A stretch of DNA of 18,338 bases from Promethearchaeota archaeon (lineage in GTDB: Archaea > Asgardarchaeota > Lokiarchaeia > Sigyniarchaeales > SOKP01): contig JABCSY010000083.1 in NCBI GenBank assembly GCA_018238625.1, positions 1 through 18,338 on the forward strand, given 5' to 3'. Below the pieces are notes generated by a model. That model did no database searches. It was not told where the DNA came from and saw only the letters and a program-made list of their open reading frames with translations. The position numbers were made by a program, and so were the translations under genes. Of this stretch, positions 1 through 17,339 are shown piece by piece; positions within the stretch are counted from its first letter, which is position 1, and every line of letters begins with the position of its first letter.

Positions 1-1249
1 CCTGGCGGATTGATGTCTGACCGGTGAGCAGCATTACCAGGCGGTCGATGCCGACCCCCAGGCCGCCGGTGGGCGGCATACCGTACTCCAGTGCCAGCAG
101 GAAGTCTTCGTCAACGGCTTCCTCTATCTCGCCTTCCGCCTGGCGGCTCTTTTGCTGCTCGATGAAGCGCTTTCTCTGCTCGAGCGGGTCATTGAGCTCG
201 GTAAAGGCATTGGCGACCTCCATACCGCCTATGAAAACTTCAAAGCGTTCCACCAGACGTTCATTACCTCGCTTCCTTTTAGCCAAAGGCGACATCTCCA
301 CAGGATAATCGAGAAGAAATGTGGGCTGGATAAGGTTAGGCTCGACGCAGGTGGAAATTAATTCGTCTATAAGTCTACCCCTCTGCTTGGCAGGGTCAAC
401 TTCCATACCCAATTCCATCATCCGCGACCTCAAGGAAGAGGTATCTGAATAATCCTCGAAGTCAAGACCGCAGTAATTCCCGACCGCCTCCCGCAGGCTA
501 AGTCTTGGCCAGGGAGGAGTAAAATCAATGAGCTGTCCATTAAAACTAATTTCGGCTTTGCCCAGAACTCCACGAGCAGTGGTTAAAAACATATACTCAA
601 CCAAACTCATCACATCGTTATAATCGGCATAAGCCTCATAGCTTTCCAGCATGGTGAACTCGGGATTATGTTTGGTGGAAATGCCTTCGTTGCGAAAAAC
701 CCGCCCAATCTCATAAACCTTGTCCAGGCCACCCACTATCAGCCGCTTGAGATGGAGTTCCAGGGCAATGCGCAAATACAGGTCTTCATCAAGGGCGTGG
801 TGATGAGTGATAAAAGGTTGAGCCAGAGCTCCACCAGCCTGTGGCTGTAATACTGGTGTTTCCACCTCCACAAATCCCCGCTCATTCAAGAAGTGCCTCA
901 CAGCAGCTATGATGCGACTGCGCATTATGAAAATGGGCTTGGTTTCCTCATTGGTAATGAGGTCAAGGTAGCGCTGTCGATAGCGCTTTTCAACATCAAC
1001 CATTCCATGCCATTTCTCAGGCAGGGGCTGCAGGGATTTAGACAAGATGGTGAAGTCGTTTACCTCAAGGCTAATCTCTCCGCTCTTTGTCCGGAAAAGC
1101 TTGCCCTCCGCCCCAATAATGTCGCCAATATCAAGGTCACGAAGTAGCTTATATTTGTCTTCGCCGAGTGGGTCGCGGCCAAAATAAAGCTGAATCTTCC
1201 CCGAACCATCGCGGATATCAAGAAAGGCAACTTTGCCCATAAAGCGGCT
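1..1249 (-). CDS. lysS: Class II lysyl-tRNA synthetase, partial (N-terminus missing at the ~1250 junction, 3' end runs off the window); bacterial type
   Basis: Manual minus-strand translation gives SRFMGKVAFLDIRDGSGKIQLYF, PLPEKWHG, RYRQRYLDL, FVEVETPVLQ, YLRIALELHLKRLIVGG, GRVFRNEGISTKHNPEFTMLE, PTFLLDYPVEMSPLAK, ANAFTELNDP and DEDFLLALEYGMPPTGGLGVGIDRL, all class II LysRS motifs. An in-frame TAA at 1264-1262 cuts the frame upstream. Confidence 0.97.
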
Positions 1250-2376: not shown

Positions 2377-2889
2377 TTAAAAATATATGGGCAAATAAGC
2401 TAAGAAACCAACGAGAAAAGAAATTAAATTAGCAGAAAAGGTCATTCTAAGTATATATTTTGACGATAATTCTACATCTACTCCTTTTTGTAATTCAATT
2501 CTTAAGAGATACGATTCAATGAAAACAACTCCAATCTCTGTGAGAAATACGTAAAACAAAAAGAATAGCAAGAAATATATATAGAAAAAATAGGCAATGA
2601 TTTGTGTTAGCGGAAAGGTAACAAGATTAATTCTTAAAAATAATCTATAACGGCTTCTCGAGCTATCCTTAAATCTATGTTTTTTAAAAAACTTTGAATT
2701 AAAATAAGCGTACTCTACCCATGCCCCTATAAAAAACATGATTATTAACAGGGGGACTCTGATAAAGGGGCTTTCAATTGGGCCCATCACCTCCAAACCA
2801 ATATTTCCATAAACATTCTGAGTAAATTCAGAATACAAAAATACGAATACACCTATAACTAAAAAGATTGCTTTCCTTTTCACATTCAC
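2377..2889 (-). CDS. Hypothetical multi-pass membrane protein, 170 aa
   Basis: About 5 hydrophobic segments with embedded polar motifs INLVTFPLTQ, TEIGVVFIES, SANLISFLVG. GTG start. Confidence 0.8.
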   Translation of the reverse strand: MNVKRKAIFLVIGVFVFLYSEFTQNVYGNIGLEVMGPIESPFIRVPLLIIMFFIGAWVEYAYFNSKFFKKHRFKDSSRSRYRLFLRINLVTFPLTQIIAYFFYIYFLLFFLFYVFLTEIGVVFIESYLLRIELQKGVDVELSSKYILRMTFSANLISFLVGFLAYLPIYF

Positions 2890-3004
2890 ATTAATAATTT
2901 AGACATGGAAATTTAAATACTCATTGGTTCTCAAGTAATACTTCCCAAAAACTATTATATAGAGATGCTTTTCTTTTTATCAGATTTTTTTTCTTTTCTT
3001 TCAT

Positions 3005-3061
3005 TCATGTTAAGCTAATCTTGTGATATTTTTCAATTGAGATTAGTGGTTCAAATTTAGG
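3005..3061 (-). pseudogene. 3' remnant of a paralog of the methyltransferase-TPR gene
   Basis: Reads PKFEPLISIEKYHKISLT*, matching the end of 4075..5394 (PKFDPII). 25/36 nt identical with mismatches mostly at third codon positions. No start codon; in-frame stop at 3079-3077. Confidence 0.5.
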
Positions 3062-3158
3062 GATAAATAAGGGATCTTATATTAAGAGACTTTGCCCTAC
3101 AGAGCAACGCTGTCCGAACTGTAGAAAACTTTTTGATATATTTATGTGTGCTAAAGAG

Positions 3159-3758
3159 TTATAAAAAGAATAATAAGTTAAATATCAAAATTAACACAGT
3201 AACTATTATTCCTATATAGAAAAAACTTTTTTTTGACTCATTTAAAGAAATAATACTTCCTAATCCAATTAAAAAGATGGCAATATTGATCCCAAAAGAA
3301 CCAAAGCCGTATAACCGGTAACTCCAAAAAGATGCGTGAGTAAACATAACGGGTTCTAAATCTGGCATGAGAGAAAAAGCGTATTCTATAAATTTTATGT
3401 TTAAAGTTATTGAGAGATAAATTAAAACTATAAAAATAAATATTAATTCTCCATAGGATTTCCTATTTATATTGTTTAAACCAAATTCTATAGAAAGAAT
3501 TAATATCAAAATCGCAAAGAAAAGCACAACCATAGATAAGACTATATTTAGTCTAAAAGGTATTGCTAATGAAAATATTTGATCTTGTTCTTGATAAATT
3601 CCCAAATACCACACGTTGGATTGACTTGAGATTGATATCCCTTCTTCCCCCTTAGAAATTGCAAATGGTGTGAAAAGTGCAATTATTATTAGAATTGAAC
3701 TTAGTAAAGGTATTAACGCTAATGGGTTCCTTACAATCGTCTTAATTTTATCAATCAT
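3159..3758 (-). CDS. Hypothetical multi-pass membrane protein, 199 aa
   Basis: About 5 hydrophobic segments. ATG start 18 nt downstream of the 89-aa peptide gene on the same strand. Confidence 0.82.
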   Translation of the reverse strand: MIDKIKTIVRNPLALIPLLSSILIIIALFTPFAISKGEEGISISSQSNVWYLGIYQEQDQIFSLAIPFRLNIVLSMVVLFFAILILILSIEFGLNNINRKSYGELIFIFIVLIYLSITLNIKFIEYAFSLMPDLEPVMFTHASFWSYRLYGFGSFGINIAIFLIGLGSIISLNESKKSFFYIGIIVTVLILIFNLLFFL

Positions 3759-3776
3759 ATTTACACATAAATCTCT

Positions 3777-4046
3777 CTAAATAACTTGAAATTTCTTTTT
3801 AAAATCTCTAAGTTTTACAGTCGAGTATAGTGCACCAGAGGGGTAGACATTTTCGTTTATTTTTCCAACTATAAAAATTAAAGAGTTAAACCATCCTATT
3901 ATAATTAGGAACATGACGACAATTAGCAGAAGTCTCCATAAATAAGCATGTTTACTATTATCAAAAATCATTATCTGATTTATCTCTTTTTTGGTTAATC
4001 CTAATTCTTTTCCTACTTCATAAAATTTTATTTTATCACCAATCAA
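3777..4046 (-). CDS. Small hydrophobic peptide, paralog 4 (candidate radical SAM substrate)
   Basis: VGKELGLTKKEIN, hydrophobic core, VYPSGALYSTVKLRDF. TTG start preceded by GAGGG. Confidence 0.88.
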   Translation of the reverse strand: MIGDKIKFYEVGKELGLTKKEINQIMIFDNSKHAYLWRLLLIVVMFLIIIGWFNSLIFIVGKINENVYPSGALYSTVKLRDFKKKFQVI

Positions 4047-4074
4047 ATTTTTTCCCTCAAATTAAAAATAATCT

Positions 4075-5394
4075 TTAATATATTATCGGATCGAACTTAG
4101 GTTTATTTCCCTTCCTTTTTTTAATCCAATTGAATTCTTTCTGGATTTGCGATTTTAAATCTTGTTTATTTTCAACATTGGTTATCTTTATTAGACGCAA
4201 TGTCTTCTTATAAACTTTTTCTGATTGATCATATGATTTTAGTCTTGCTAATGTTTTACTTAAATTCCAGAAAAATAAATAATTATCTCGATTTAATTTA
4301 ATTGCTCTCAAAAATAAATTATGAGCGTGAGTATAATTATTTTGATGAAAAGATTTAATTCCGAGATAAAATAAGTTTAACCCTTTTCTCTCAATTAAAG
4401 TGGTTGAGAATATTTTATTATTTAAATCTTTAGAGGATTTGTGCAGAGTTTTAAGTTTTTCAATAAGTTTTTCTCGATTTTCCTTGGAATTTAGAAGATT
4501 TTCTATTAATTTTCTCGCAAACGATTCTACTGAAAAAAAGATAATTCTTTGCGATCCGGGATTTGTAGGACCTTCAGCTATAGAATTAAAAAGAATATTT
4601 ACAATTTGATGTTCAATTAAAAGCTCTGATATTTCTTTAATATTTAAGTATTCTACGTGAGAGATATAGTTTTCATTTTGTATAGCTAGTAATAAGGATT
4701 TAACGACTTCAGGCCATTTAAACAACAGTTCGACAAATAATTCCTTAGTTAACCCTTTTATTTTTGTTTTTTTTAACTCAAGTAGCTTTAATGCTATGTA
4801 AGTTATTAAATCTTCTTGCTCTTTAGCTAAGAAGGAATCAGCAAAATCAATTTGGTCGCTTAAAAGTAGCTCTTTACGGAGATTAGAAATAACTTGAAAT
4901 ACTTCAAGTTCATTGCTATTACCACTTTTATAGCATTCAAACCTAACTGAGGGAATAGCCTCATCGTTATAAAAACTTGAAGTCGTATTATTATCGAATC
5001 CTGCATTTTCCAATAGTTCGATTAAGAGGAACGGGGGAAAACATAATTTATGCTGCAGTCCTTTATGAGGTATTCCAAAAAACCATCCCAATATTTCTTT
5101 TTTTTGTTCTTCGTTAGCTTTTAAATAATGCTGGCAAGCTTTCTCAAGATCAGGAGTTTCAAGGATTAATTTCCCATTAGGTTCTAACACTCTAAAAAAT
5201 TCACTAAGAGCATAAATAGTTTCAAAAAAACTTAAGTGTTCAATTATATGGATCGCTTTAATTTCATCGCAAGTATTGTCGTCAAAATCAAGGCTAAAAG
5301 CTGACATCAGTTTATCAGCCACCAAATCTTCGTACAAATCGATATTACAATAATCGGGATCGTATTTTTTTCCGCAACCAATATTAAGCTTCAT
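4075..5394 (-). CDS. Class I SAM-dependent methyltransferase with C-terminal TPR-like repeats
   Basis: N-terminal KLNIGCG motif I, NID, HIIEHL, EFFRVLEPNGKLILETPD. C-terminal TPR-like YLGIKSFHQNNYTHAHNLFLRAIKLNRDNYLFFWNLSKTLARLKSYDQSEKVYKKTL. Start overlaps the upstream stop (ATGA, 5394-5391). Confidence 0.88.
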   Translation of the reverse strand: MKLNIGCGKKYDPDYCNIDLYEDLVADKLMSAFSLDFDDNTCDEIKAIHIIEHLSFFETIYALSEFFRVLEPNGKLILETPDLEKACQHYLKANEEQKKEILGWFFGIPHKGLQHKLCFPPFLLIELLENAGFDNNTTSSFYNDEAIPSVRFECYKSGNSNELEVFQVISNLRKELLLSDQIDFADSFLAKEQEDLITYIALKLLELKKTKIKGLTKELFVELLFKWPEVVKSLLLAIQNENYISHVEYLNIKEISELLIEHQIVNILFNSIAEGPTNPGSQRIIFFSVESFARKLIENLLNSKENREKLIEKLKTLHKSSKDLNNKIFSTTLIERKGLNLFYLGIKSFHQNNYTHAHNLFLRAIKLNRDNYLFFWNLSKTLARLKSYDQSEKVYKKTLRLIKITNVENKQDLKSQIQKEFNWIKKRKGNKPKFDPIIY

Positions 5395-5639
5395 TTTTTT
5401 TTATCAAAGTCTTTAATTCTTACAGTTGAATACTTTGTTCCGCTAGGATAAGTGTTGCTAATCGTTGATTCAATAAATAACCCAATAAAATAGGCCACAA
5501 TTGAAAATGTTATGATAAAAATAATCAGCAATATGGTTCTATTCTTAATATTATCAGAGAATAAAACTTTGTTTATTTCTTTTTTAGATAATCCTAATTC
5601 TTTCCCGATTTTATGTAGTTGGATCAAATCTTTCATCAT
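5391..5639 (-). CDS. Small hydrophobic peptide, paralog 3 (candidate radical SAM substrate)
   Basis: IGKELGLSKKEIN, hydrophobic core, TYPSGTKYSTVRIKDF. Confidence 0.88.
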   Translation of the reverse strand: MMKDLIQLHKIGKELGLSKKEINKVLFSDNIKNRTILLIIFIITFSIVAYFIGLFIESTISNTYPSGTKYSTVRIKDFDKKK

Positions 5640-5736
5640 TTTCTCAATAATCGCTCAAATTTTAAAGTTAATTTAATTTTTATATTTTTACCATCAAATT
5701 AAATTTTATGATTTCTTTAAGAAAAAAGTGTTGAAT

Positions 5737-6000
5737 TTAGCTTTTTTCGTTGAAATCTTTTATTTTAACAGTAGAATATAATGTTCCGGTTTGATAAGTA
5801 TTATTTTTTGGAACATATGGTGGTACAGATAAACAAGAGACTATAACTAAAATAAATATAAACATGAGAATTATAATTAGTATAAATCCCCCAAAATCTC
5901 TATCCTTAAAGTTGTCATATAAAAAGATTTTATCTATTTCTTTTTTTTTTAATCCCAATTCTCTTCCTATCTTATACAGTTGAAATAATTCTCTTTTCAT
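5737..6000 (-). CDS. Small hydrophobic peptide, paralog 2 (candidate radical SAM substrate)
   Basis: IGRELGLKKKEID, hydrophobic core, TYQTGTLYSTVKIKDF. SD-like AAGGAGG upstream, overlapping the previous stop. Confidence 0.88.
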   Translation of the reverse strand: MKRELFQLYKIGRELGLKKKEIDKIFLYDNFKDRDFGGFILIIILMFIFILVIVSCLSVPPYVPKNNTYQTGTLYSTVKIKDFNEKS

Positions 6001-6087
6001 TTTCTAAATCATCCCTCCTTATTTGAACTTTATACTATCATTTTTAGCTCTAAAATCTTTTATTCTAACAGTAGAATATAATGTTCC
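5753..6087. repeat. 35-bp direct repeat (5753-5787 and 6053-6087) encoding GTLYSTV(K/R)IKDF
   Basis: AAATCTTTTATT(T/C)TAACAGTAGAATATAATGTTCC, 34/35 identical, 300 bp apart. Confidence 0.9.
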
Positions 6088-6285
6088 AGCAGGATAAATA
6101 TGTCTTGAGGCTTCAATTCCTAAAATAATAACGAAAATTCCCAAAAAAATAAATACGATTATCATTAGGATTTTGTAAAATAATGGATATCTACTATCGT
6201 CAAATAAAAAAACTCTATTAATTTCTTTCTTACTTAATCCTAACTCTTTACCGATTTTATATAATTGAAAAAGATTTTCTAACAT
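6019..6285 (-). CDS. Small hydrophobic peptide, paralog 1 (candidate radical SAM substrate)
   Basis: IGKELGLSKKEIN, hydrophobic core, IYPAGTLYSTVRIKDF. GGAG upstream; 34 nt after the radical SAM stop. Confidence 0.88.
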   Translation of the reverse strand: MLENLFQLYKIGKELGLSKKEINRVFLFDDSRYPLFYKILMIIVFIFLGIFVIILGIEASRHIYPAGTLYSTVRIKDFRAKNDSIKFK

Positions 6286-6319
6286 TCTTAGGATATCTCC
6301 ATTAAATTCTGTTATCAGA

Positions 6320-7423
6320 TTATTTGAATATTAAGTTTTGATACATATTTTTTAATATTGAAATTGTTGAATCCAGTTTCCCTTTAATTGGTAATTGTTT
6401 CGATGAAAACATTTTATTTTCGATTGCTCTTAGGCAATAAGGCTCATCAAATTCTTTTAGTGCAAGGGCTGTTCCTAAACATCCTCCTCGACATATTTTT
6501 ACCATATCACAATCTACGCAATAACCTTTTAACTGTTTTTGCTTTAACCTTATCTTTTCCAAAATCGTTTTCAAACTCTGCGTTCTAACATTTCCTTCGA
6601 CAAATCCATCTGGGAGCGTTAAACACCCTTTTATGTTTCCATTGCTCTGAATACCTAAAACCGATAATCCCGCTTGGCATCCTACCCATGGATCCAACCC
6701 TAAATTTGGTATGAACCTTGAAAAATAACCGAAACAATGGGCACCAATAACGGGTAATCTTTTATAGGAATACTTTTTAACATTTATCGCAATGAATAAT
6801 GCAACGGTGTAAAATTCCTCCCTTGAAATCGTTAATTCTCTTGGGAAGCGTCCAATAGGGATTGCTATCTGGATTTGCCAAGCAATATTTCGATCTAATA
6901 ATATATCTTTTATCTTATCTAGTTCATTTAAATTAGTTTTACTTACTGCTGTAATAACACTGACTGGTAGTTTTTCTTCTTTTAACCTGTTAATCGCATT
7001 TAGTGTTTTTTCAAATGCTCCTGGAATACCTCTAAGATAATCGTGGACTTTCGCTGACCCTCCATCTAAACTTAGCGATACGCAGTCAACTTTTAAGCTT
7101 TTTAATTTTTGAATGTTATCAATTAAATTTAATCCATTAGTAACAATTGATAATTCCAGCTTATTTTTTTTAATTTCTCTCGCAATTTCATACCAGTCGT
7201 CTCTAATTAGTGGTTCTCCTCCCATTAAAGCAACTCCTTTATAACCGCAATCACGGATTTCCCTAACTAATTTTAAAGATTCTTCGGTATTTAGTTCATC
7301 AGGACGACTTTTTCCTGCTTTTGATCCACAATGAATGCAATTACTATTACACTTTAGCGTAATTTCCCATACAGCGCAAGAGGGTTTAATTCTTTGAGAT
7401 ATTAGAGAAGTAATGCTTGGCAT
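6320..7423 (-). CDS. Radical SAM/SPASM-domain enzyme, putative peptide maturase
   Basis: AVWEITLKCNSNCIHCGSKAG (CxxxCxxC), MGGEP, VTNG, SLSLDG. SPASM cysteines in GCQAG, GNIKGC, CVDCDMVKICRGGC (CX2CX5CX3C) and PYC. Confidence 0.95.
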   Translation of the reverse strand: MPSITSLISQRIKPSCAVWEITLKCNSNCIHCGSKAGKSRPDELNTEESLKLVREIRDCGYKGVALMGGEPLIRDDWYEIAREIKKNKLELSIVTNGLNLIDNIQKLKSLKVDCVSLSLDGGSAKVHDYLRGIPGAFEKTLNAINRLKEEKLPVSVITAVSKTNLNELDKIKDILLDRNIAWQIQIAIPIGRFPRELTISREEFYTVALFIAINVKKYSYKRLPVIGAHCFGYFSRFIPNLGLDPWVGCQAGLSVLGIQSNGNIKGCLTLPDGFVEGNVRTQSLKTILEKIRLKQKQLKGYCVDCDMVKICRGGCLGTALALKEFDEPYCLRAIENKMFSSKQLPIKGKLDSTISILKNMYQNLIFK

Positions 7424-7602: not shown

Positions 7603-7974
7603 ATGTCTCAAAATAAATGTTTGTTCCACCCTACAAGGACATGTTATTATTATACAAAATTCTGTAGAAAACTAAGTTGCGAGGAAAGTAGAAAAAATTA
7701 TCATTCTAATAGTAAAAAAGTTTATCGAATCTCTAGTAAAGAAGGGTCTCTACATGAGAGATGGCACGAAATTGACTTCCGATATATCCTCCTATATGTC
7801 GCATTATTCTTACTCGGTCTGATAGGAGTATATTTTGGTGTTCAATTCTATGATCCAATTTGTAATAGTGGTGATTATGACGAGACTTGCATCAATCTCC
7901 TAGCAAGTATTTATTTTGCCGGTTTACTTATGGCATTATCTACTGCTTTGGCAATCAGAGAGTTAAAAGGCTAA
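7603..7974 (+). CDS. Hypothetical membrane protein with Cys/His-rich N-terminus, 123 aa
   Basis: CLFHPTRTCYYYTKFCRKLSC followed by two TM segments flanking a CNSGDYDETC loop. Confidence 0.7.
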   Translation: MSQNKCLFHPTRTCYYYTKFCRKLSCEESRKNYHSNSKKVYRISSKEGSLHERWHEIDFRYILLYVALFLLGLIGVYFGVQFYDPICNSGDYDETCINLLASIYFAGLLMALSTALAIRELKG

Positions 7975-7988
7975 AAAAAAACACTCGA

Positions 7989-8870
7989 TTATTCCATAGG
8001 CCATTCGAGTAATGACAATATTAAATTTTTGTTAGATAATCCTCCTCGAGTAAGTGTACCTACAAAATTTTCTCGTTTAAACATTTTTTTTAAGACATAT
8101 CTTAAAAGTTGCTTATCCAGAAGTCCTTTTTGTTTAGCTTCATTTTGAAATTCGTGAGCTTTCAGATGTAATGAAGTAATCTCATCCATTCTATCTTTTA
8201 AAAACGATCTGCCTTTATAAACGCCCTTCCCAGAAGTAAAGAGGAGCAAATTGTCCATTCCTTCTGCGAAATCATATAATTTTTTAATTGATTGAAATAT
8301 AAGTGAGATATCCTCGGGAATGTCAGTATCCTTACCAAATATCATTTGATATTTTGGCATTACTGCGTCGGTGATAAATGCCCATTGTTTTTTTCGTTCA
8401 ATTAAACTAATTAGTTCAGGAGCATGTCCTGGAGTATCTATTATTTCAAAAATGTATTTACCTGACTTAGATCTAATTGAATCTTTTAATAGTTCAGCTT
8501 GAAACGGTTGGTAATCTACGCCCCAAGTCATCTGTCGATAATCGGGATATTCTTTTTCTTTCATTAATAGTGGAATAGCCAGCTTACTAGCGAAAACGGG
8601 AATGTTAAATTTTTCTCGGAGCATACGACCCCCGCCACAATGATCTTCGTGGTTATGTGTAATTACACACTTCTCAGTCATATTATTGGAATTAAGAGTT
8701 TTTATAAATTTGCGTAAATCGCCTACTCCTCCTGGAGCACCCGCGTCAATCAATAACCCGTCAATTAAAAATACTGATGTCCAAAAAGGCTGAGGCATTA
8801 ATTCGCTGTCTGAAGACCATTTCCATTCTAATATCTCGTTATTACAGTGATAAACTATCTGAACAGCCAT
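7989..8870 (-). CDS. MBL-fold metallo-hydrolase
   Basis: LLIDAG, THNHEDHCGG (HxHxDH), TPGHAPE, FITDA. Confidence 0.93.
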   Translation of the reverse strand: MAVQIVYHCNNEILEWKWSSDSELMPQPFWTSVFLIDGLLIDAGAPGGVGDLRKFIKTLNSNNMTEKCVITHNHEDHCGGGRMLREKFNIPVFASKLAIPLLMKEKEYPDYRQMTWGVDYQPFQAELLKDSIRSKSGKYIFEIIDTPGHAPELISLIERKKQWAFITDAVMPKYQMIFGKDTDIPEDISLIFQSIKKLYDFAEGMDNLLLFTSGKGVYKGRSFLKDRMDEITSLHLKAHEFQNEAKQKGLLDKQLLRYVLKKMFKRENFVGTLTRGGLSNKNLILSLLEWPME

Positions 8871-9018: not shown

Positions 9019-11622
9019 TTACCCATATACAGGGTACATTATAGGGAAAACAAAAAGAAACGGAAGAGGGTAAAAAAGTGAAATAATAAATAGCGATACT
9101 AATCCAGGGAGAATACTTCTTCTTTTATAAAAAGCAAATCCTAGTAGTAATCCAGATACAAAAATATAGATAAATTCAAATACTAAATAGTATAAAAGTT
9201 GATCTATGTCTATATATTGCGGAGAGGAGCTAATAATAAGTAGATATGGAAGAATAAATTTTGAGACAAGAAAAATAACGGCTTGTTGTATTATTGCTTT
9301 TTTAGGGCTAGATTTTTTCATTAAAATCGTCAAAATAATTCCACGATATAACAACTCTTGGAAAAAAATATAGATTAAATAACTTGTCCATAGCATTATA
9401 TTAATATTAATATTAAACAAATTACTCGAACCTTGCAATTTCGTTAAGGATGTGACAATATATAAAACGGAAATAGATGAAATTACAAAAATAATGGTTT
9501 TGAGGCTTTTTTTATTTAAAATCAACTTAAGCCAACTTAGCCCAGAACAATCTAAATATTGACTAAGCGATTGTCTTCCGTTTGGCAGCCCTAAACATTT
9601 CGGTACAAAATAAAACCAAATAAATATCAAAAGGATGCACGGTACTCCAAAAATAACTATTACCTTAAATAAATATGAAAAATCTTGTTGACGCACATAA
9701 TAATAATCATACGGGTCTACCCAGATCCAAAAAAAACTTATAAAAAAAAAGAATAAGAAAAGTGAAACATAGTCTATAATAACTAAAGATACAATTGATA
9801 GCTTGTTGTTCCTAGAAAAAATAGTTGGTTTTTGCTCTACTTTTTTAACAAATAAAAAACTCTCTTTTTTGTAGGATGGCAATAATGTATCATAGAAGAT
9901 AAATACAATTAAAAACCCCACGATTAGAAAGATCCAGAACGATGTTACCATGTTATTCAAATCTTGAAAATAATATAATTGTAGAAAAATCGAAAATACC
10001 CAAATAAGAAGACCAAAAGGCACAGAAATGGTCATAGTCCATTTAAATATACGGTTTTGGGGATTGTAATATCCTAATACATAATTTTTTTTTTTCTTTC
10101 TACCGAATAATTCGATTCTTAAAAGAAATATAATCAATAAAATTAGCCAATTGAATGGTAATGTGAAAAGAAAATTAGCAATTATGGCAATAAAATTAGG
10201 ATTAGTGAGGTACATTAAAGAGGGTAAGAGTGTTGCGCAAGTTTGAAAAATAAAAATCAGAAATAATTTGGATTTAGCTTGCTCTCTTGGAACAATGGGC
10301 AAAGTATCAATAATTGACCCTCCAGATGCGTCTAGGTTCATTATCGCATGAACTAATAAGCCTGAAATAATTGGGCTAAAAATTAAAATGCGAATCCAGT
10401 TAAGTAAAAACCCACCATCAGTAAAACTAATGATTCCAATATTTTTAATGCCTATTATCGTGATAAAAATAAAAGAGAGCGTTATCGGCATAATAATTGA
10501 TATGAATGCTTTAATGTCTCGCGAGATTATGTAAAGATCTCTACGTAAGTATGCAATAAAAGATGTTGTAATTCTAACATCTACCCCATTATCCTTATTA
10601 ATTGCTTTAAAATTCCCTATTACATTAATTGCCTTGAGTTTAGAAATGCTAATTCTCTCAATTGCTTTAAATGCTTTTTTAGAAATCCAATATGTTATAA
10701 TGCTAAACAGTGCAAAGCCAATCAAAGTACTTACCCACAGCTGAGGGGATGCTTGATTGGGAGCGATAAATAAAGAAATTAAAAAGCTAGAACTAAAAGG
10801 ATAAGGAATAAGGCTTAGGATAAGGTTTATTATGGAATGATAATCGGAAGCGACAAATAGATCGTACATTATCCCTATCGAGCTAAAAAACCATTGAATA
10901 ATAGCGTAACTGCTAAAAATTATAATTATATAGCTAAAAATGTTAATTAATCGAATAAGTAAAGTTTTTTTTGATCCGATTTCATTAATGTCCAAAATTC
11001 GATTTATCCGTTCTCCAATTAGAATTAATATGCTAAATGAAAATACTAAATTAACAAATGAAATTCCAAAGCATATCAAGAACAATATTAAACTTTGGCT
11101 TCCAATTAATATAACTAACGGAAATGAAAAAAATAAAACTATAATTGGTATATCATAGCTACGAAATAAAGTTAAATAAACAATTTTCAATAATTTTTTT
11201 CTCGAAATTGGTAGCGTTTCTAGCCATTCAAAAATTTTGCCTGAGATAATCATTGTGGCATCTAACATCCCCATTATAAAAAAGTTTAAAAATTGCAGAG
11301 CAAAATAAAGAGAAAAAAGCAAACCCCCCATAAAAAATATACTTTCGATTGAAGCTGAGCTGTTCATAAAGAGATTGATTAGTTCTAAATAAGTTAATAG
11401 AGGGATTACAGGCATAACTCCAAAGATAATCGCGTAAAATAATTTCGTGAGAACTACTTTTAACTTAAATCTAAACGGACGATTATTATATTTATTTAAA
11501 AAATACGATTTGTTTCCACCCTTTGTAAATACTAATTCTTCAACTAGTAATTCTTTACTGGTGTATTTTGTCAAATAATACAGTGAAAGGTTCTCTTTTT
11601 CTATTGGATTTCTTCTTTTCAT
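9019..11622 (-). CDS. Large polytopic membrane protein: ABC-exporter permease-like region plus C-terminal degenerate CPBP (CAAX/Abi) domain
   Basis: Many TM segments; duplicated permease-like motifs WLETLPISRKKL and IIDTLPIVPREQAKSK; C-terminal FFQELLYRG and LLLGFAFYKRRSILPG. Confidence 0.7.
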   Translation of the reverse strand: MKRRNPIEKENLSLYYLTKYTSKELLVEELVFTKGGNKSYFLNKYNNRPFRFKLKVVLTKLFYAIIFGVMPVIPLLTYLELINLFMNSSASIESIFFMGGLLFSLYFALQFLNFFIMGMLDATMIISGKIFEWLETLPISRKKLLKIVYLTLFRSYDIPIIVLFFSFPLVILIGSQSLILFLICFGISFVNLVFSFSILILIGERINRILDINEIGSKKTLLIRLINIFSYIIIIFSSYAIIQWFFSSIGIMYDLFVASDYHSIINLILSLIPYPFSSSFLISLFIAPNQASPQLWVSTLIGFALFSIITYWISKKAFKAIERISISKLKAINVIGNFKAINKDNGVDVRITTSFIAYLRRDLYIISRDIKAFISIIMPITLSFIFITIIGIKNIGIISFTDGGFLLNWIRILIFSPIISGLLVHAIMNLDASGGSIIDTLPIVPREQAKSKLFLIFIFQTCATLLPSLMYLTNPNFIAIIANFLFTLPFNWLILLIIFLLRIELFGRKKKKNYVLGYYNPQNRIFKWTMTISVPFGLLIWVFSIFLQLYYFQDLNNMVTSFWIFLIVGFLIVFIFYDTLLPSYKKESFLFVKKVEQKPTIFSRNNKLSIVSLVIIDYVSLFLFFFFISFFWIWVDPYDYYYVRQQDFSYLFKVIVIFGVPCILLIFIWFYFVPKCLGLPNGRQSLSQYLDCSGLSWLKLILNKKSLKTIIFVISSISVLYIVTSLTKLQGSSNLFNININIMLWTSYLIYIFFQELLYRGIILTILMKKSSPKKAIIQQAVIFLVSKFILPYLLIISSSPQYIDIDQLLYYLVFEFIYIFVSGLLLGFAFYKRRSILPGLVSLFIISLFYPLPFLFVFPIMYPVYG

Positions 11623-11808: not shown

Positions 11809-12186
11809 TTATTCGATACCGAGTTTTGCTGAGTATTTTATCAACAAAAAGATTACAAAAGCCACAATGATAAAAGTTAAAAGGTCTCCTAAAAAAGCCC
11901 CAATTCGAAAAACCCAGAGCGTGAATTCCTCCCATGGAATACTAGGTGGCAAGAAAAAAGTGACTAAAGGCATTACCAGATTATCTACAAGCGACTGGAC
12001 AAGGTCCCCGATATATTGACCCATAATAAAAGCAATAGCAAGACCTAAGACCTTATATTTCATTATAAAATCTTTGAACTCTTCTAAAAGATTTTTCTTT
12101 TTTTCAGGCTCCTTAGGAGGTGGAGTAGGTGCTAACGCTTCTCTGATTTTCCTTAATTCTTCTAACATTTCTGAATCTGTCGTCAT
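11809..12186 (-). CDS. mscL: Large-conductance mechanosensitive channel family protein
   Basis: LLEEFKDFIMKYKVLGLAIAFIMG (S1/TM1), LVQSLVDNLVMPLV, IGAFLGDLLTFIIVAFVIFLLIK (TM2). Confidence 0.92.
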   Translation of the reverse strand: MTTDSEMLEELRKIREALAPTPPPKEPEKKKNLLEEFKDFIMKYKVLGLAIAFIMGQYIGDLVQSLVDNLVMPLVTFFLPPSIPWEEFTLWVFRIGAFLGDLLTFIIVAFVIFLLIKYSAKLGIE

Positions 12187-12398: not shown

Positions 12399-13253
12399 AT
12401 GAGTAATACTGGATTTAATCAATTTAAAGGAGATGTTAATACTGAAAGGATCAAATATATTGCTGATCCTCAATTAAAAAACATCGTTAACGTTTCAATT
12501 GCCTTAGCTCGACCTTTAATAGTAAAGGGAGAGCCCGGTACAGGAAAGACCTTGTTATCTCACGCTATTGCCGAATCTTTGGGAAAACGATTAATTGTAT
12601 GGAATGTAAAAAGCACAACGGAAGCAATCGATGGGTGCTACATGTACGATACAGTCCAGAGATTAAACGATAGTCGATTTGGAAGCGACGATCGTAATGT
12701 AAATAATATTAAAGATTACATAACGCTTGGACCGCTAGGGGAGGCTTTTGACTCTGAGGAACAAGTCGTCCTTCTTATCGACGAGGTCGATAAGGCAGAT
12801 ATCGAGTTTCCAAACGATCTTTTACAAGAACTAGATGTAATGGAATTTTATGTTAAAGAAACCAAAGAATTTGTTAAAGCTAAAACTCGACCTATAGTTA
12901 TTATTACTTCAAATAACGAAAAGGAACTTCCTGACGCGTTCTTACGTAGATGTGTGTTTCATTGGATAGAATTTCCTTCAAAAGAATTTATGGCAGACAT
13001 CTGTAATCTTCACTATCCACATCTGAAACAAAACCTTTTAGACCAGTGCCTTAAAAATTTCTATGCGTTAAGAGCGATCACAAAACTAAGAAAAATGCCC
13101 TCCACATCTGAGCTTCTGGATTGGATCGGCGTTTTATTGAAGAGTGGAATAAGCCTAGACGAGTTGAAGCATGGAATACCATTCCTTGGAGTGCTCCTTA
13201 AAAAGGAAAAAGATCTCGAAATAGCCTTAGATAAAGTTAAGTTCCCTACATGA
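12399..13253 (+). CDS. MoxR-family AAA+ ATPase (CoxD-like)
   Basis: Walker A GEPGTGKT, Walker B VLLIDEVDKAD, FPNDLL, ITSNNEKELPDAFLRRC. Confidence 0.95.
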   Translation: MSNTGFNQFKGDVNTERIKYIADPQLKNIVNVSIALARPLIVKGEPGTGKTLLSHAIAESLGKRLIVWNVKSTTEAIDGCYMYDTVQRLNDSRFGSDDRNVNNIKDYITLGPLGEAFDSEEQVVLLIDEVDKADIEFPNDLLQELDVMEFYVKETKEFVKAKTRPIVIITSNNEKELPDAFLRRCVFHWIEFPSKEFMADICNLHYPHLKQNLLDQCLKNFYALRAITKLRKMPSTSELLDWIGVLLKSGISLDELKHGIPFLGVLLKKEKDLEIALDKVKFPT

Positions 13254-13288
13254 TCAATTTTAAATTATTTGGTTATAGGATTGAATAA

Positions 13289-14521
13289 ATGTTTGTTGAG
13301 TATTTTTATTACCTAAAAGAAAGGTTACCGGTCAGTATTACGGAGTATATGACCCTTATGGAAGCCCTTGAAAAAGGTCTTATCCATAACATGGTCGAGT
13401 TCTACTATATTTCGAGATCTATACTATGTAAGAACGAACATCACTTTGACATTTACGATATTTCGTTTGCTAACTTTTTCAAAGACGCGTCTTTAAAGTT
13501 TCCAGAAGAAATCAAACAAGAAATATGGGATTGGCTTCAAAAAGATATTAATCCACCCGAATTGCCTGACGGATTTCAGGAATTTCTTAACCAACATTTT
13601 GATATCGAAGAATTACAAAAACACTTCGAAGAATTACTTAAAAAACAGGATGAGGAGCATAATTTTGGGGATCAATGGATTGGAACTCAAGGTTTTTCTC
13701 AATTTGGTCATTCGGGGCAAAATCCAATGGGTATGAGGGTAGGTGGCTCGTCCGGCATGCGCATGGCAATACAAATCGCCCAAAAAAGAATCTTTGCCGA
13801 TTACAGAAAAGATATCGTTTTAGACACCCGCCAAATTAAAGTCGCATTGAAGCGTCTAAAAAAATTGGAAGAGATAGGGAAGCAAGACGAGTTAAACATG
13901 GATAAAACAATTGATGAAACTGCTAGAAATGGCGGGGACATCGAACTTATTTTCGAGAAAAAAAGGAAAAACAACGTTAAACTCATCCTTCTTATGGATG
14001 TTGGAGGAAGCATGACCCCTTATGCTCATCTTGTTAACCTACTTTTTTCTGCTGCAAACAACATGTCGCATTGGAAATCTTTTAAGTTTTATTACTTCCA
14101 CAATTGCGTGTATGACCAACTTTATTTCAATGCTCAAAGAAATTCTGACGAGGCTATAGATTTCGACGAGCTTTTAAGAAAATACGATAGTAAGTACAAA
14201 GTAGTTGTCGTGGGCGACGCTGCTATGGCCTCTTGGGAGCTTACGGAGAGATATGGTTCGATTTATTATTACCATAGAAACGAGATGCCCGGAATTTATT
14301 ACATTAGAGAAATAGCCAACCACTTCAAGAACAATGTCGTTTGGTTAAACCCTGAATTAATTCGATTAGAGTGGGTACCATGGACGAGGAAGATTATTTC
14401 GAGCCTTATCCCTATGTTTAACTTGACGATAGAAGGAATCGAAGAAGCGATGAATTATCTAAGAAACAGCGGGAAAAGCCAATTTACCACAGTTCATAGA
14501 CTTAAGGGACTGAATTATTAA
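13289..14521 (+). CDS. VWA-domain protein (CoxE-like partner of MoxR)
   Basis: MIDAS-like LLMDVGGSM, YYFHNCVYD, VVGDAAMA, VWLNP; directly after the MoxR gene. Confidence 0.92.
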   Translation: MFVEYFYYLKERLPVSITEYMTLMEALEKGLIHNMVEFYYISRSILCKNEHHFDIYDISFANFFKDASLKFPEEIKQEIWDWLQKDINPPELPDGFQEFLNQHFDIEELQKHFEELLKKQDEEHNFGDQWIGTQGFSQFGHSGQNPMGMRVGGSSGMRMAIQIAQKRIFADYRKDIVLDTRQIKVALKRLKKLEEIGKQDELNMDKTIDETARNGGDIELIFEKKRKNNVKLILLMDVGGSMTPYAHLVNLLFSAANNMSHWKSFKFYYFHNCVYDQLYFNAQRNSDEAIDFDELLRKYDSKYKVVVVGDAAMASWELTERYGSIYYYHRNEMPGIYYIREIANHFKNNVVWLNPELIRLEWVPWTRKIISSLIPMFNLTIEGIEEAMNYLRNSGKSQFTTVHRLKGLNY

Positions 14522-14689: not shown

Positions 14690-14883
14690 ATTTAATATCA
14701 AATGATCAGTTTTGATAAAAGAAATCCTAGAGCTTCTCATGCTATAAAATCTTAAAATTTTACCGGTAAAATTGAGGGATTACACCTAAATTTACTGCTT
14801 CTACCAGTAATTATGTTCTTTAAATTTAAATAGACTGAAAAAGTAATTATTTAACATCAAATGATCAATTTTGATAAAAAAAA
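14690..14883 (+). repeat. Duplicated 35-bp promoter/operator-like element (14690-14724 and 14849-14883)
   Basis: ATTTAA(T/C)ATCAAATGATCA(G/A)TTTTGATAAAA(G/A)AAA, 32/35 identical. Each copy has inverted arms ATCAAA-N8-TTTGAT. Confidence 0.8.
14756..14773. promoter_or_regulatory. Perfect 18-bp palindrome, candidate transcription factor site
   Basis: AATTTTACCGGTAAAATT equals its own reverse complement; intergenic, upstream of the solute-binding protein gene. Confidence 0.55.
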
Positions 14884-14897
14884 AAAAGTGTAAAATA

Positions 14898-17339
14898 ATG
14901 AAAATTAAGAAATATTTTATAGTGTTAATCATTTTTTCGCTATTGCTAACCATTTCGTTGATAAATATTGATAGAAATATAGATTCGTGGCCAGCTAACG
15001 ATAAAATTCATCTTTCGAGCAAACCGATGCAACAAGTACTTTTTAAGGTTGGTGTGACCTCCGTTCCTTCTGATATCGATCCACACTACATGTGGAGTAT
15101 GAGCCCCTTTTATTTTATAGACCAAGTTTGCGAAGGATTATTTGCCTACAACCTGAGCGATCCCGATAATTCGATTATTCCTAACCTTGCACTCTCGGGA
15201 ACTTGGAATCTTGCGGGAACGGAGTATACGTGTATCCTTAGGCAAGGAGTTACTTTCCACGATGGAGCTCCTTTTAACGCAGACGCAGTTAATTTTACAT
15301 GGAGTCGACTGAATTGGGCGCTAAATGTAACTGGAACAAATACTGATGATGTCTCTCAATTCCACGAATTATACGAGCTTCCAGACGGAAGACCTATAGT
15401 ATCGAGTATAACTAAAAATAACGATTATAACGTTACATTTGTCTTAAACGACCCTTATGTACCGTTCGAAGCGTTATTATGTTTCAGTGGTTCTTACATG
15501 TTATCTCCTTCCTCAACTCCTGCAACTGCTTACATTGATATAGCCACCGGAGATCTCGTTGGAACGGGTCCTTTCGTCTACGATAATTATACATTAAATG
15601 TAGAAGTTAATTTCCACGCTTTTGATAACTACTGGAAAGGAAAAGCGAATATAACCGCGATGAGATTCCAAATTATTAGTAATTCAGACGCGTTACATGC
15701 GGCGTTATTAGCGGGTGATGTTCACTTTATAAGTGCTACTAAATCTTCGTGGTATTCAGCAATTAAGTCTTCTCCTAATATTACATTTTTAAATACTAGT
15801 ACTACAAAAACTGAAGTTTGGTATTTAGGGATGAATAACGAGCTTCTTAATACCACTTGGAGAGAAGCCATCGCATATGCGATCGATTATGATTATATAG
15901 TCGATGTCTTAAGAGAAGGTAACGCTGTAAAAATGGAATCACCGATTCCAGAGGGTATCATGTATGCCAACTGGACATTCGATGAAGCTGTATTAAATGT
16001 TTCATATGCTCGTGAGATCATGCAATCTATGGGTTTTGGTGTTGGATTAAATGTAACTGTGAATGGTCCTGACGAATCGGTTTGGCAAGCGTCCACATTC
16101 TTATCCGTTAACTATTCTTATAACATTGGAAACTCATTCCGAGAAGATGTCTTAGTCTTATTACAAAATAATCTTAACAAAATCGGAATTGTTGTAGAAG
16201 ATGCCGGTATGTCATATACGGATTTTTTAAATAGACTTTTTGAAAAAGACGGTCTGCACAGAAACATGCTTCAACTCTACTGGATTGGATGGGGTATGGA
16301 CTATAACGACCCAAGCAATTTCATTAACATGTTATTTACAAATAGATCAAGTGCATATAATTTTGCTCAATATGATGGATACCAAGCAGCGATTGAAGCG
16401 GGAAGGAATCCTTTAGATGTGAACGATAACGTACAGCTTTTAATGGAAGCAACACTTTCAGAATTAGATCCCGTGGTAAGAGAAGCTCTTTATGATAGGA
16501 TTCAAGAACTTCTTATCGAAGAAGATCGTCCATGGGCGTGGGGTTATGTTCCATATGTTTATCACGCGTATGACCAGCATTTAACCGGTTTTCAACAAAA
16601 CGCTATGAACAAATTCTACTTCTACCCATGCGAATGGAATTCGTTTCCAGTTTTACCTGGACTATTTAGCATACTTTCCGATGCCGACGATCCGGATACT
16701 GACGGGAATTTTAATGTTACATGGTCACCGTCAGCTTACGCGGATAATTATTCACTATATGTATCTTCCAGCGTAATAACGGTAATTAATGAGGATGTAA
16801 CAGTTCTATTGAATGAAGTTACAGATTTATCTTACGAAGCAAGTGGATATTCATACGGAACTTATTATTTTCTAGTAGTGGCGGAGAATGGAAATGGCAA
16901 TACAACCTCGAGCAATTTAATGGTAAATGTTGAAACTCCGATACCTGAACCCTTTACGTTATCTTCGGACGCTGAAAGTCCTGACGCGAACGGAAACTTC
17001 ACTCTTACTTGGACTCCTTCAAACCTTGCGGATAATTATTCTCTGTACGTCTCTTCTAGTTTAATTACCGAAATTACTGGTAGTTTAACTTTACTTCTTG
17101 ACGAAGCTACCGATCTTTCTTACGACGCAAGTGGATATTCAGACGGAACTTATTATTTTGTTGTAGTAGCGAAAAACGCATATGGTACGACATTGTCCAA
17201 CAATATTGAAGTTGTTGTCGAAATAGAAGAACTAGTACCAGCTCCGCTGATCCCTGGGTTTGAAATGTGGACGATGTTCTTCGCGATTAGCTCAGTTGGT
17301 TTAATTATACTGTTAAGAAAGAAGAAGAAAATTACCTAA
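14898..17339 (+). CDS. Family 5 (DppA/OppA-like) ABC solute-binding protein with two FN3-like domains and a C-terminal IPGF-TM-basic anchor
   Basis: ATG at 14898 preferred over TTG 14871 (gives signal-like MKIKKYFIVLIIFSLLL). LRQGVTFHDGAPFNADAV, VGTGPF, REAIAYAIDY, GWGMDYNDP. Ends IPGFEMWTMFFAISSVGLIILLRKKKKIT. Confidence 0.93.
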   Translation: MKIKKYFIVLIIFSLLLTISLINIDRNIDSWPANDKIHLSSKPMQQVLFKVGVTSVPSDIDPHYMWSMSPFYFIDQVCEGLFAYNLSDPDNSIIPNLALSGTWNLAGTEYTCILRQGVTFHDGAPFNADAVNFTWSRLNWALNVTGTNTDDVSQFHELYELPDGRPIVSSITKNNDYNVTFVLNDPYVPFEALLCFSGSYMLSPSSTPATAYIDIATGDLVGTGPFVYDNYTLNVEVNFHAFDNYWKGKANITAMRFQIISNSDALHAALLAGDVHFISATKSSWYSAIKSSPNITFLNTSTTKTEVWYLGMNNELLNTTWREAIAYAIDYDYIVDVLREGNAVKMESPIPEGIMYANWTFDEAVLNVSYAREIMQSMGFGVGLNVTVNGPDESVWQASTFLSVNYSYNIGNSFREDVLVLLQNNLNKIGIVVEDAGMSYTDFLNRLFEKDGLHRNMLQLYWIGWGMDYNDPSNFINMLFTNRSSAYNFAQYDGYQAAIEAGRNPLDVNDNVQLLMEATLSELDPVVREALYDRIQELLIEEDRPWAWGYVPYVYHAYDQHLTGFQQNAMNKFYFYPCEWNSFPVLPGLFSILSDADDPDTDGNFNVTWSPSAYADNYSLYVSSSVITVINEDVTVLLNEVTDLSYEASGYSYGTYYFLVVAENGNGNTTSSNLMVNVETPIPEPFTLSSDAESPDANGNFTLTWTPSNLADNYSLYVSSSLITEITGSLTLLLDEATDLSYDASGYSDGTYYFVVVAKNAYGTTLSNNIEVVVEIEELVPAPLIPGFEMWTMFFAISSVGLIILLRKKKKIT
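16656..17226 (+). repeat. Tandem 96-aa (288-nt period) FN3/Ig-like domain duplication
   Basis: PGLFSILSDADDPDTDGNFNVTWSPSAYADNYSLYVSSS...GTYYFLVVAENGNG versus PEPFTLSSDAESPDANGNFTLTWTPSNLADNYSLYVSSS...GTYYFVVVAKNAYG; units start at 16656 and 16944. Confidence 0.9.

Follow-up and report, generated by a model that had tools for sequence, protein, structure and literature searches.

A candidate radical-SAM RiPP-like maturation system with membrane-helix peptides in a Promethearchaeota archaeon

Closest described systems and placement of the locus

Among described systems, the binary type II spliceotide systems of Rheinheimera (RhaX/RhaA, RcsX/RcsA, and RasX/RasA) are the nearest to the locus reported here (PMC11414181; PMC11626197). 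In spliceotide maturation, a radical S-adenosylmethionine (rSAM) enzyme termed the X protein excises a tyramine equivalent at X-Tyr-Gly sites (PMC11414181). The splicing reaction leads to a mass loss of 135.06 Da, and the ketoamide product inhibits proteases (PMC11626197). PlpX is placed in the SPASM subclass IPR026482 (PMC11002830). The binary systems have neither a Y protein nor a RiPP recognition element (RRE; RiPP, peptide that is made by the ribosome and modified after translation), and the leader helix occupies the site of the RRE on the enzyme (PMC11414181). The locus in question lies in an 18,338-nucleotide (nt) stretch of DNA (positions 1-18,338 of contig JABCSY010000083.1; hereafter the window) from the 4.29-Mb genome of a Promethearchaeota archaeon. 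It contains genes for an rSAM/SPASM enzyme, four paralogous peptides (P1-P4), a methyltransferase (MTase) fused to TPR repeats (MTase-TPR), and a membrane protein. Sequence comparison places it as an rSAM/SPASM RiPP-like system that is nearest to the binary spliceotides and is distinguished from them by a membrane-anchored precursor, a Tyr-Ser site, and the fused MTase-TPR.

Several features are shared with spliceotide systems. The SPASM rSAM gene adjoins one or more precursor genes. As in the binary systems, there is no separate RRE (Pfam, E ≤ 0.1) and the leader is helical, which in the window is a prediction. A Tyr residue is invariant, with a variable residue before it and a small residue after it, and X-Tyr-Gly is present in 129 of the 145 core units found in relatives that have no membrane helix. 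Moreover, the best NCBIfam match of the window enzyme is a Nif11-class peptide maturase family, TIGR04103. However, the score of this match is 203.5 bits against a cut-off of 725, which places the enzyme outside the family. Other differences are that the window peptides have Tyr-Ser instead of Tyr-Gly, that a membrane helix lies between their leader and core, and that the fused MTase-TPR is an obligate neighbour in Asgard genomes. In addition, the leader, which gives no match in NCBIfam or Pfam, belongs to neither the Nif11 nor the NHLP type, and the hosts are archaea.

PqqE and MftC, which act in the biosynthesis of pyrroloquinoline quinone (PQQ) and mycofactocin, are SPASM rSAM enzymes that modify a Tyr near the C-terminus of a small peptide (PqqA and MftA, respectively), as is proposed for the window enzyme; unlike those pathways, the locus has no RRE, peptidase, or further pathway genes, the family cut-offs are missed, and relatives have multi-core precursors. 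Triceptide systems (XncB, OscB, MscB, YxdB, and YhhB) also combine SPASM rSAM enzymes with short, often repeated aromatic motifs, to which a Tyr-x-Thr motif may correspond here (PMC11002830), but the top 25 NCBIfam matches of the window enzyme include no triceptide maturase family, and the leader and membrane helix are unrelated. In Methanococcus voltae, the SPASM rSAM enzyme CrpC installs thioether links on the protein CrpA (PMC13692751). This system resembles the window locus in having an archaeal SPASM rSAM enzyme and a gene-neighbour target larger than a classic RiPP. However, CrpA as described is Cys-rich with thioethers and CrpC has a predicted RRE (PMC13692751), whereas the window peptides have no conserved Cys in the tail and no RRE is found.

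Literature searches returned no account of this peptide family or of a precursor with a membrane helix between leader and core. These searches agree with a preliminary description of the locus, made from the sequence alone, whose author knew of no characterised system with this precursor type in Asgard archaea; as corrections to it, spliceotides are a close described analogue and the family extends beyond Asgard archaea. To our knowledge, no RiPP product has been characterised in Asgard archaea, and the system would add an archaeal branch to radical-SAM peptide chemistry across the Asgard phylum. In a survey of archaeal RiPPs, the rSAM RiPP clusters of Asgard genomes are mentioned just by antiSMASH class (PMC12144867). 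Spliceotide clusters from both bacteria and archaea are stated to have come to light in a previous genome-mining study (PMC11626197), which may already include the members that lack a membrane helix.

The peptide family and its linkage to the enzymes

The cassette is encoded on the minus strand in the order of the rSAM/SPASM enzyme (6320..7423; 367 amino acids [aa]), P1 (6019..6285; 88 aa), P2 (5737..6000; 87 aa), P3 (5391..5639; 82 aa), MTase-TPR (4075..5394; 439 aa), P4 (3777..4046; 89 aa, with a TTG start), and a 199-aa membrane protein (3159..3758), as taken from the list of open reading frames (ORFs). The gaps computed from the ORF coordinates are 34, 18, 97, -4, 28, and 18 nt; the negative value corresponds to the stop codon of P3, which overlaps the MTase start by 4 nt. 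All seven co-oriented ORFs and these gap values are as first described. The short ORFs are true paralogues, with P2-P4 sharing 40-49% identity with P1, 21 invariant columns in the alignment of the four, and joint-profile E-values of 4e-39 to 4e-41. These four are the only matches to the joint profile in the genome.

P1 was delineated from its ORF, the family profile, and a structural model as a precursor-like peptide with a leader, a transmembrane (TM) helix, and a tail with a Tyr motif. Its leader (residues 1-23, ...LYKIGKELGLSKKEIN; 6217..6285, minus strand) has the helix-turn-helix that is common to the relatives without a membrane helix. The membrane helix (residues 34-57; 6115..6186, minus strand) is located between leader and core, and the core motif Y64-P-A-G-T-L-Y70-S-T-V-R-I-K-D77-F78 (6052..6096, minus strand) is the probable modification site as judged from conservation. 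The AlphaFold model (mean predicted local distance difference test [pLDDT] 80.4) has helices at residues 2-14 and 19-24, a TM helix at 34-61, and a coil at 62-74 over the Tyr motif; the leader is predicted as helical with a pLDDT of 85-92. An alignment of 61 family members, drawn from the window and from 25 related loci, is straightforward and shows a conserved head, l-x-k-i-G-K-E-L-G-L-x-K-K-E-I (GKELGLxKKEI in short form), a single hydrophobic helix between head and tail, and a conserved tail, N-x-Y-P-x-G-T-x-Y-S-T-V-K-I-K-D-F, with a few basic residues after it. The 15-residue tail unit has the pattern Y-x2-G-x2-Y-S-T-x4-D-F.

L17, Y64, and Y70 do not vary across 47 sequences that represent several Asgard families, and G12, G16, G67, D77, and F78 reach at least 90% conservation. 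The alignment has no conserved Cys, which excludes sacti- and ranthipeptide chemistry. P1-P4 are real conserved genes, with 139 homologues at E ≤ 0.01 among 140 candidates. Exactly one hydrophobic segment is present in 78 of the 90 members of the BLAST cluster. The other 12 are one peptide that scores two segments and 11 proteins of the 199-aa type, which were pulled in through locus L032, where what looks like a 199-aa protein fused to a peptide is an artefact of bases read as X; the two families are not homologous. The related loci carry one to five peptide paralogues each, and P4 represents a distinct subtype with a longer TM helix and a tail ending in ...KKKFQVI. No Pfam or NCBIfam family at E ≤ 0.1 was found for P1, P2, the 199-aa protein, or a 170-aa membrane protein encoded further downstream, and the three weak Pfam matches of P3 and one weak NCBIfam match of P4 are all far below the cut-offs. 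Searches of the ESM Atlas with P1 and the 199-aa protein gave no informative cluster (best scores 0.76 and 0.89, no Pfam family). The head motif was also considered as a DNA-binding helix-turn-helix and rejected, since the model has two short helices only and the same motif heads soluble multi-core peptides.

These soluble relatives were found with a profile built from 47 peptides and searched against 1.84 billion cluster representatives, which yielded 177 proteins at E ≤ 1e-3, including 89 at E ≤ 1e-10. Some of the matches have no membrane helix; in these, the same head, I-Y-x-x-G-K-x-L-G-L-x-K-K-D-I-D, is joined through a short linker to tandem units of 15 residues, [DE]-x-Y-K-A-G-T-x-Y-G-T-[VI]-S-x-K, and the sequence ends in ...K-D-F. 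Such forms occur at 43 loci, of which 39 are from metagenomes and four from the genomes of two Thermoplasmatota-labelled metagenome-assembled genomes (MAGs). The peptide is detectable in 40 of the 43 loci, 52 of the 54 peptides have no hydrophobic segment, and the number of units ranges from one to seven. One to four rSAM/SPASM homologues are directly adjacent in 21 of the 43 loci (14 of 26 among the loci of at least 7 kb) and score E-values of 1e-89 to 1e-132 against the Asgard enzyme profile, while an MTase-TPR homologue is present in only two of the 43. The peptide family is not confined to Asgard archaea. In 400 Asgard genomes the multi-core form was not found, the single match to its profile being a membrane-type cassette peptide.

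For a RiPP precursor, a leader ahead of repeated cores, encoded beside its rSAM enzymes, is the textbook layout. The window peptides have the same leader and one core, with the membrane helix set between them. Because the same leader heads tandem cores beside rSAM homologues, P1-P4 are very probably substrates of the rSAM/SPASM enzyme and the MTase. The proposal that the locus is a RiPP-like cluster with the peptides as substrates is therefore supported, by gene linkage and by the multi-core relatives, to the extent that comparative data allow. The RiPP arrangement of a leader-plus-core precursor encoded beside a modifying enzyme is found in 24 of the 25 related Asgard loci and in 21 of the 43 loci without a membrane helix. 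The multi-core relatives, with up to four rSAM paralogues and no membrane helix, would be easy targets for heterologous expression.

Some of these relatives have additional features. The gene order at L054 is a non-SPASM rSAM, an rSAM/SPASM, a 2-core peptide, two rSAM/SPASM genes, a 3-core peptide, and a flavoprotein of the old yellow enzyme (OYE) type. The cluster at L054:3431-10341, and its counterpart L055, both from the Thermoplasmatota-labelled MAGs, also includes a Methyltransf_23 gene, and the same two MAGs have single-core, 61-aa orphan peptides elsewhere (L056 and L057). In P0337 (174 aa) and P0368 (133 aa), the entire leader-plus-core unit is repeated two or three times. On a metagenome contig, L088:6662-6868 encodes a 68-aa peptide beside an rSAM homologue, with the same leader and a membrane helix and with a divergent tail (…ISINDFDFF). 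This peptide may represent a membrane-anchored form from beyond the Asgard genomes that were sampled.

The linkage of peptide and enzymes in Asgard archaea was assessed by a scan of one genome per prokaryotic species. The 25 related loci found are mostly titled as Promethearchaeota or Asgard candidate phylum, and four are titled only as 'uncultured archaeon'. The peptide adjoins the rSAM and/or MTase gene in 24 of these loci; it is beside both in 21, and in three a contig end falls inside or next to the MTase gene. The recurrence of the same neighbours is far above chance. The orphan locus, L026, has neither enzyme; it was rejected as a counter-example, as it is 100% identical to contig C71 of genome G219, which bears the full cassette on contig C100. 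The rSAM orthologues in 21 related loci are 61-96% identical, and the MTase-TPR orthologues that adjoin the peptides are 46-90% identical. Two gene orders, rSAM-P(n)-MTase-(P-199aa) and P-MTase-rSAM-P(-199aa), were observed, indicating that the association between peptide and enzymes survives rearrangement.

In the genome-level survey (400 Asgard genomes; rSAM threshold of E ≤ 1e-70), the peptide is present in 77 genomes and the rSAM in 107, with 74 of the 77 peptide-positive genomes also having the rSAM. The three misses are G244 (88% complete), G393 (52% complete), and G003, in which the rSAM is in two pieces. In the family to which the window belongs, 54 of 55 peptide-positive genomes have the rSAM. 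Several 100%-complete genomes of the same genus (G249, G260, and G267) have neither the peptide nor the rSAM, which makes the cassette an accessory, patchy trait. Among 16 loci from other Asgard families, the rSAM adjoins an MTase-TPR in 13, where the pair is accompanied by more distant forms of the peptide; contig ends truncate two loci, and the remaining one lacks an adjacent MTase. The distant peptides are longer and of two types. The first (107-154 aa) has an extended head, one helix, and the tail T-Y-x-P-G-T-x-Y-G-S-I-S-P-K-D-F. The second (148-170 aa) has about three helices, with Y-P after the first helix and a C-terminal Y-[GSDN]-[VT]-[FY]. At L041:6063-7131 (genome G003), the rSAM gene is split into ORFs of 170 and 130 aa beside intact peptides and MTase, which may be explained by a decaying copy or a frameshift.

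Enzymes, proposed chemistry, and alternative explanations

The rSAM/SPASM enzyme is a probable maturase according to its Pfam and NCBIfam matches, invariant Cys residues, and orthologues. Pfam matches are to Radical_SAM (PF04055; 3.7e-28, 99.2 bits, cut-off 29.5) and SPASM (PF13186; 6.9e-5, 23.5 bits, cut-off 21.5). The CX3CX2C motif corresponds to C25/C29/C32 and is invariant in 20 orthologues, as are eight further Cys residues in the SPASM part (C230, C249, C267, C302, C305, C311, C315, and C330). The enzyme belongs to the radical SAM/SPASM superfamily, and no RRE domain is present at its N-terminus. The NCBIfam matches include, after TIGR04103 (4.1e-60), the GDL-motif peptide maturase TIGR03913 (184.5 bits, cut-off 592), the heme b synthase AhbD (TIGR04545; 161.7 bits, cut-off 500, 3e-47), WgkB (8e-36), MftC (TIGR03962; 119.2 bits, cut-off 265, 2e-34), the NirJ-type tetrapyrrole enzyme TIGR04051 (114.9 bits, cut-off 515), and PqqE (TIGR02109; 73.9 bits, cut-off 381, 1e-20). 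The window enzyme is a member of none of these families. A sequence search of the PDB gave matches to the rSAM core only (SkfB 3e-18, PqqE 6e-10). In a tree of 68 enzymes, which was inferred by a quick method only, all 65 peptide-linked rSAMs are split from three paralogues in the window genome (branch length 1.71, Shimodaira-Hasegawa-like approximate likelihood ratio test [SH-aLRT] 97).

MTase-TPR has a class I SAM-dependent methyltransferase domain (residues 1-157) and an all-helical domain (160-426) that ends in TPR repeats. The Pfam match to Methyltransf_11 (PF08241; 23.3 bits, cut-off 21.2) covers residues 29-78, and TPR matches are at 341-404. In 22 orthologues, the Gly-rich motif (N4, G6, and G8) and D19, E52, H53, D82, W104, H115, and K116 are invariant. 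The AlphaFold model (pLDDT 88.8, predicted template modelling score [pTM] 0.86) is confident also for the all-helical domain. Foldseek matches are to generic class I MTases only (e.g., 2p8j, 1.9e-5, and 1vlm), with none for the helical/TPR half. By fold and Gly-rich motif, the protein is a class I SAM-dependent methyltransferase. Since it is a constant partner in Asgard genomes and rare in the systems without a membrane helix, it is probably a tailoring enzyme, with the TPR part as a possible peptide-binding module, perhaps a leader clamp. A complex prediction of the rSAM, MTase-TPR, and P1 gave ipSAE values of 0.01 and 0.22 (mark 0.32) in runs without controls and is neutral on binding.

In the proposed mechanism, the helix-turn-helix leader at the N-terminus (GKELGLxKKEI) would dock the enzymes, and the cytoplasmic rSAM/SPASM enzyme would act on the invariant second Tyr (Y70 in P1) before membrane insertion. 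Modification in the cytoplasm is possible because a tail-anchor-like helix, here 22-49 residues from the peptide C-terminus, inserts only after translation, and post-translational insertion as for tail-anchored proteins is presumed. The most likely chemistry would be a splicease-like excision of a tyramine unit at X-Tyr-(Gly/Ser). The MTase-TPR may add a methyl group, with its helical/TPR part holding the leader. The helix would then insert with the head inside and the modified tail outside, leaving the product tethered to the cell surface, and the 199-aa membrane protein may assist or may partner the P4 subtype. As a whole, this reading, which takes the locus as the Asgard version of an archaeal RiPP-like maturation system built on radical SAM, with splicing and anchoring as proposed, is tentative and falls somewhat short of an even chance.

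The residues around the second Tyr are among the evidence for splicing. In the units without a membrane helix (n = 145), the residue after this Tyr is Gly in 129 and Ala in 14, and in the distant Asgard tails (n = 17) it is Gly in 10 and Ala in six, such that the X-Tyr-Gly splice motif is common in relatives of the window peptides. The position before the Tyr varies (R, K, Y, I, H, W, D, F, or L), as would be expected of a splice site that makes diverse beta-residues. Backbone splicing as the chemistry of the rSAM enzyme is a possible but somewhat doubtful assignment. If it is correct, the reaction would extend to Tyr-Ser sites and to membrane proteins, and Asgard cells would have a surface-tethered ketoamide, which bears on how they handle foreign proteases and syntrophic partners.

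The topology of the peptides was considered from their charge distribution. The numbers of Lys and Arg in the 15 residues flanking the helix have medians of 3 on the N side and 1 on the C side among 60 close peptides (2 and 0, respectively, among 18 distant ones). This bias suggests a head-in/tail-out orientation, which we favour with modest confidence. The forms with three TM helices, an odd number, have the two motif halves on one and the same membrane side. No conserved transporter, protease, or RRE was seen to accompany the cassette in the related Asgard loci, and the absence of an RRE/PqqD gene or protease from the operon, as first described, holds at a Pfam threshold of E ≤ 0.1. Such absence fits a product retained in the membrane or one exported by the helix of the peptide itself. 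Whether the product is permanently anchored is evenly balanced. A more specific proposal is that Asgard archaea derived a self-exporting product from a secreted multi-core radical-SAM peptide, the helix being a tail anchor that carries the modified tail across the membrane without a transporter or protease, such that an alpha-ketoamide, a warhead that traps proteases, may be displayed on the surface of its own producer. This proposal is speculative and rather unlikely. If true, the cell would show a covalent protease inhibitor or a reactive hook, and the product would be a RiPP that never leaves the membrane of its producer.

Several observations weigh against the splicing and anchoring reading. 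The match to TIGR04103, a family taken here to be the PlpX subclass, is far below its cut-off. The scores for TIGR04103, TIGR03913, and AhbD are near-equal. X-Tyr-Gly is absent from the window, where the residue after the second Tyr is Ser in all four peptides, and in the close family as a whole (n = 60) it is Ser in 57 and Ala in three. The residue at +2 from the second Tyr is Thr in 134 of the 145 units without a membrane helix, which suits a cyclophane as well as splicing. No rSAM is present in 22 of the 43 loci of those forms, although many of the 22 lie on short contigs or hold orphan peptides with a single core. In the close family, the tails carry a strong basic charge (median net charge of +4), which weakens the tail-out orientation.

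In the strongest alternative, the substrates and design are the same and the rSAM enzyme makes a Tyr cross-link without splicing, e.g., a three-residue cyclophane from C3 of Y70 to the beta-carbon of T72. The SPASM rSAM enzymes that mature triceptides join residue i to i+2, and known links include C3 of Tyr to the beta-carbon of Asp or Arg (PMC11002830). In addition to the repeat units, 53 of the 60 close-family tails have Thr at this position, the three-TM forms have T, V, or A, and the presence of one to four rSAM paralogues at each locus of the forms without a membrane helix would be in keeping with several different cross-links. However, the 25 best NCBIfam matches include no family named for a cyclophane maturase, and everything below these has E > 1.2e-19, compared with 4e-60 for TIGR04103. 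Moreover, the combination of a variable residue before the Tyr and a small one (G, A, or S) after it is the splicease signature (PMC11626197). A cross-link in place of splicing is possible, although we consider it unlikely.

Another explanation is that the small proteins are membrane anchors or regulators of the rSAM-MTase pair, and that the enzymes act on a lipid, quinone, or tetrapyrrole. A membrane helix, and particularly the versions with three TM helices (148-170 aa), is unusual for RiPP precursors, and the cassette has no protease or exporter. Furthermore, the rSAM resembles the tetrapyrrole enzymes AhbD and NirJ (3e-47 and weaker) and has a weak PDB sequence match to an archaeal tetraether synthase (1.5e-6). 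However, all tetrapyrrole family cut-offs are missed widely, the invariant residues (Y64, Y70, D77, and F78) are in the tail and not in the helix, and each locus has one to five peptide paralogues. In particular, homologues without a membrane helix keep the head and have up to seven tandem tail units beside rSAM genes, an arrangement that would be pointless for an anchor. This explanation is improbable. The proposal that the peptides are precursors of a Tyr-derived redox cofactor in the manner of PQQ or mycofactocin, here tethered to the membrane, draws on the PqqE and MftC matches noted above, on a metallo-beta-lactamase (MBL)-fold gene upstream in the window and six close relatives (PqqB has this fold), and on the OYE-type flavin oxidoreductase after the Thermoplasmatota cluster, but it is very improbable given that the equivalog cut-offs are missed (119 vs. 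265 and 74 vs. 381 bits), that no PqqD/MftB-type RRE or peptidase is found by Pfam, that none of the 16 distant loci has the MBL gene, and that tandem multi-core precursors are not a cofactor layout.

Accessory and neighbouring genes

The 199-aa membrane protein has five hydrophobic segments. Its homologues are directly after the peptide in 10 of the 25 related loci (L016, L017, L020, L021, L022, L025, L027, L031, L032, and L037), and in all 11 loci, with the window included, it occurs only after a P4-type peptide. It is an accessory member of the cassette. The 170-aa membrane protein (2377..2889, minus strand; GTG start) is separated from the 199-aa gene by 269 nt and is probably outside the cassette. 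The preliminary description had counted it in; however, homologues are found only in L013 and L024 among the 25 loci, at other positions and paired with a beta-propeller gene. In a metatranscriptome run (X4), two short contigs that are 86-96% alike cover 3276-3448 and 3995-4089; they come from relatives and may be DNA, and are not evidence of expression.

Upstream of the rSAM gene, a 293-aa protein of the MBL fold is encoded at 7989..8870 on the minus strand (PF00753, 1.9e-8). A full-length MBL gene is upstream of the rSAM in six of the 25 loci, all from close relatives, and is directly upstream in L015, L017, L018, and L024. As a lineage-specific neighbour that is present in close relatives only, it was set aside as a PqqB-like member and is not part of the core. 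The 565-nt gap between the MBL and rSAM genes includes a plus-strand ORF of 123 aa (7603-7974) with a Cys-rich head and two hydrophobic segments. The corresponding gap is about 115-230 nt in L015, L017, L018, and L024, and no homologue of this ORF was found in the 25 loci. Further upstream, 9019-11622 (minus strand) encodes an 867-aa polytopic membrane protein with a C-terminal, Rce1-like CPBP intramembrane protease domain (PF02517, 7.8e-9). This protein was considered as a cassette protease and rejected, with no homologue in 41 related Asgard loci.

One end of the window (2-1240, minus strand) has a fragment of a class II lysyl-tRNA synthetase gene (PF00152, 1.3e-87) with a G+C content of about 51%, compared with 27-33% over the next 10 kb. 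Compared with 41 genomes from the same genus, the DNA of this fragment gives no nucleotide match, and only bases 1301-1400 match. A chimeric contig end or a recent transfer may explain this. Beyond the 867-aa gene, an MscL channel gene is located at 11809-12186 (minus strand), followed by a pair of genes for a MoxR-like AAA ATPase (284 aa) and a CoxE-type VWA protein (410 aa) at 12399-14521 (plus strand). Among 42 loci, with the window included, synteny extends to the AAA gene in 13, the VWA gene in eight, and the MscL gene in 12. Finally, 14871-17339 (plus strand) encodes an 822-aa family-5 solute-binding protein (PF00496, 3.7e-65) that has a terminal membrane anchor and, in its C-terminal part, two repeats of about 100 aa.

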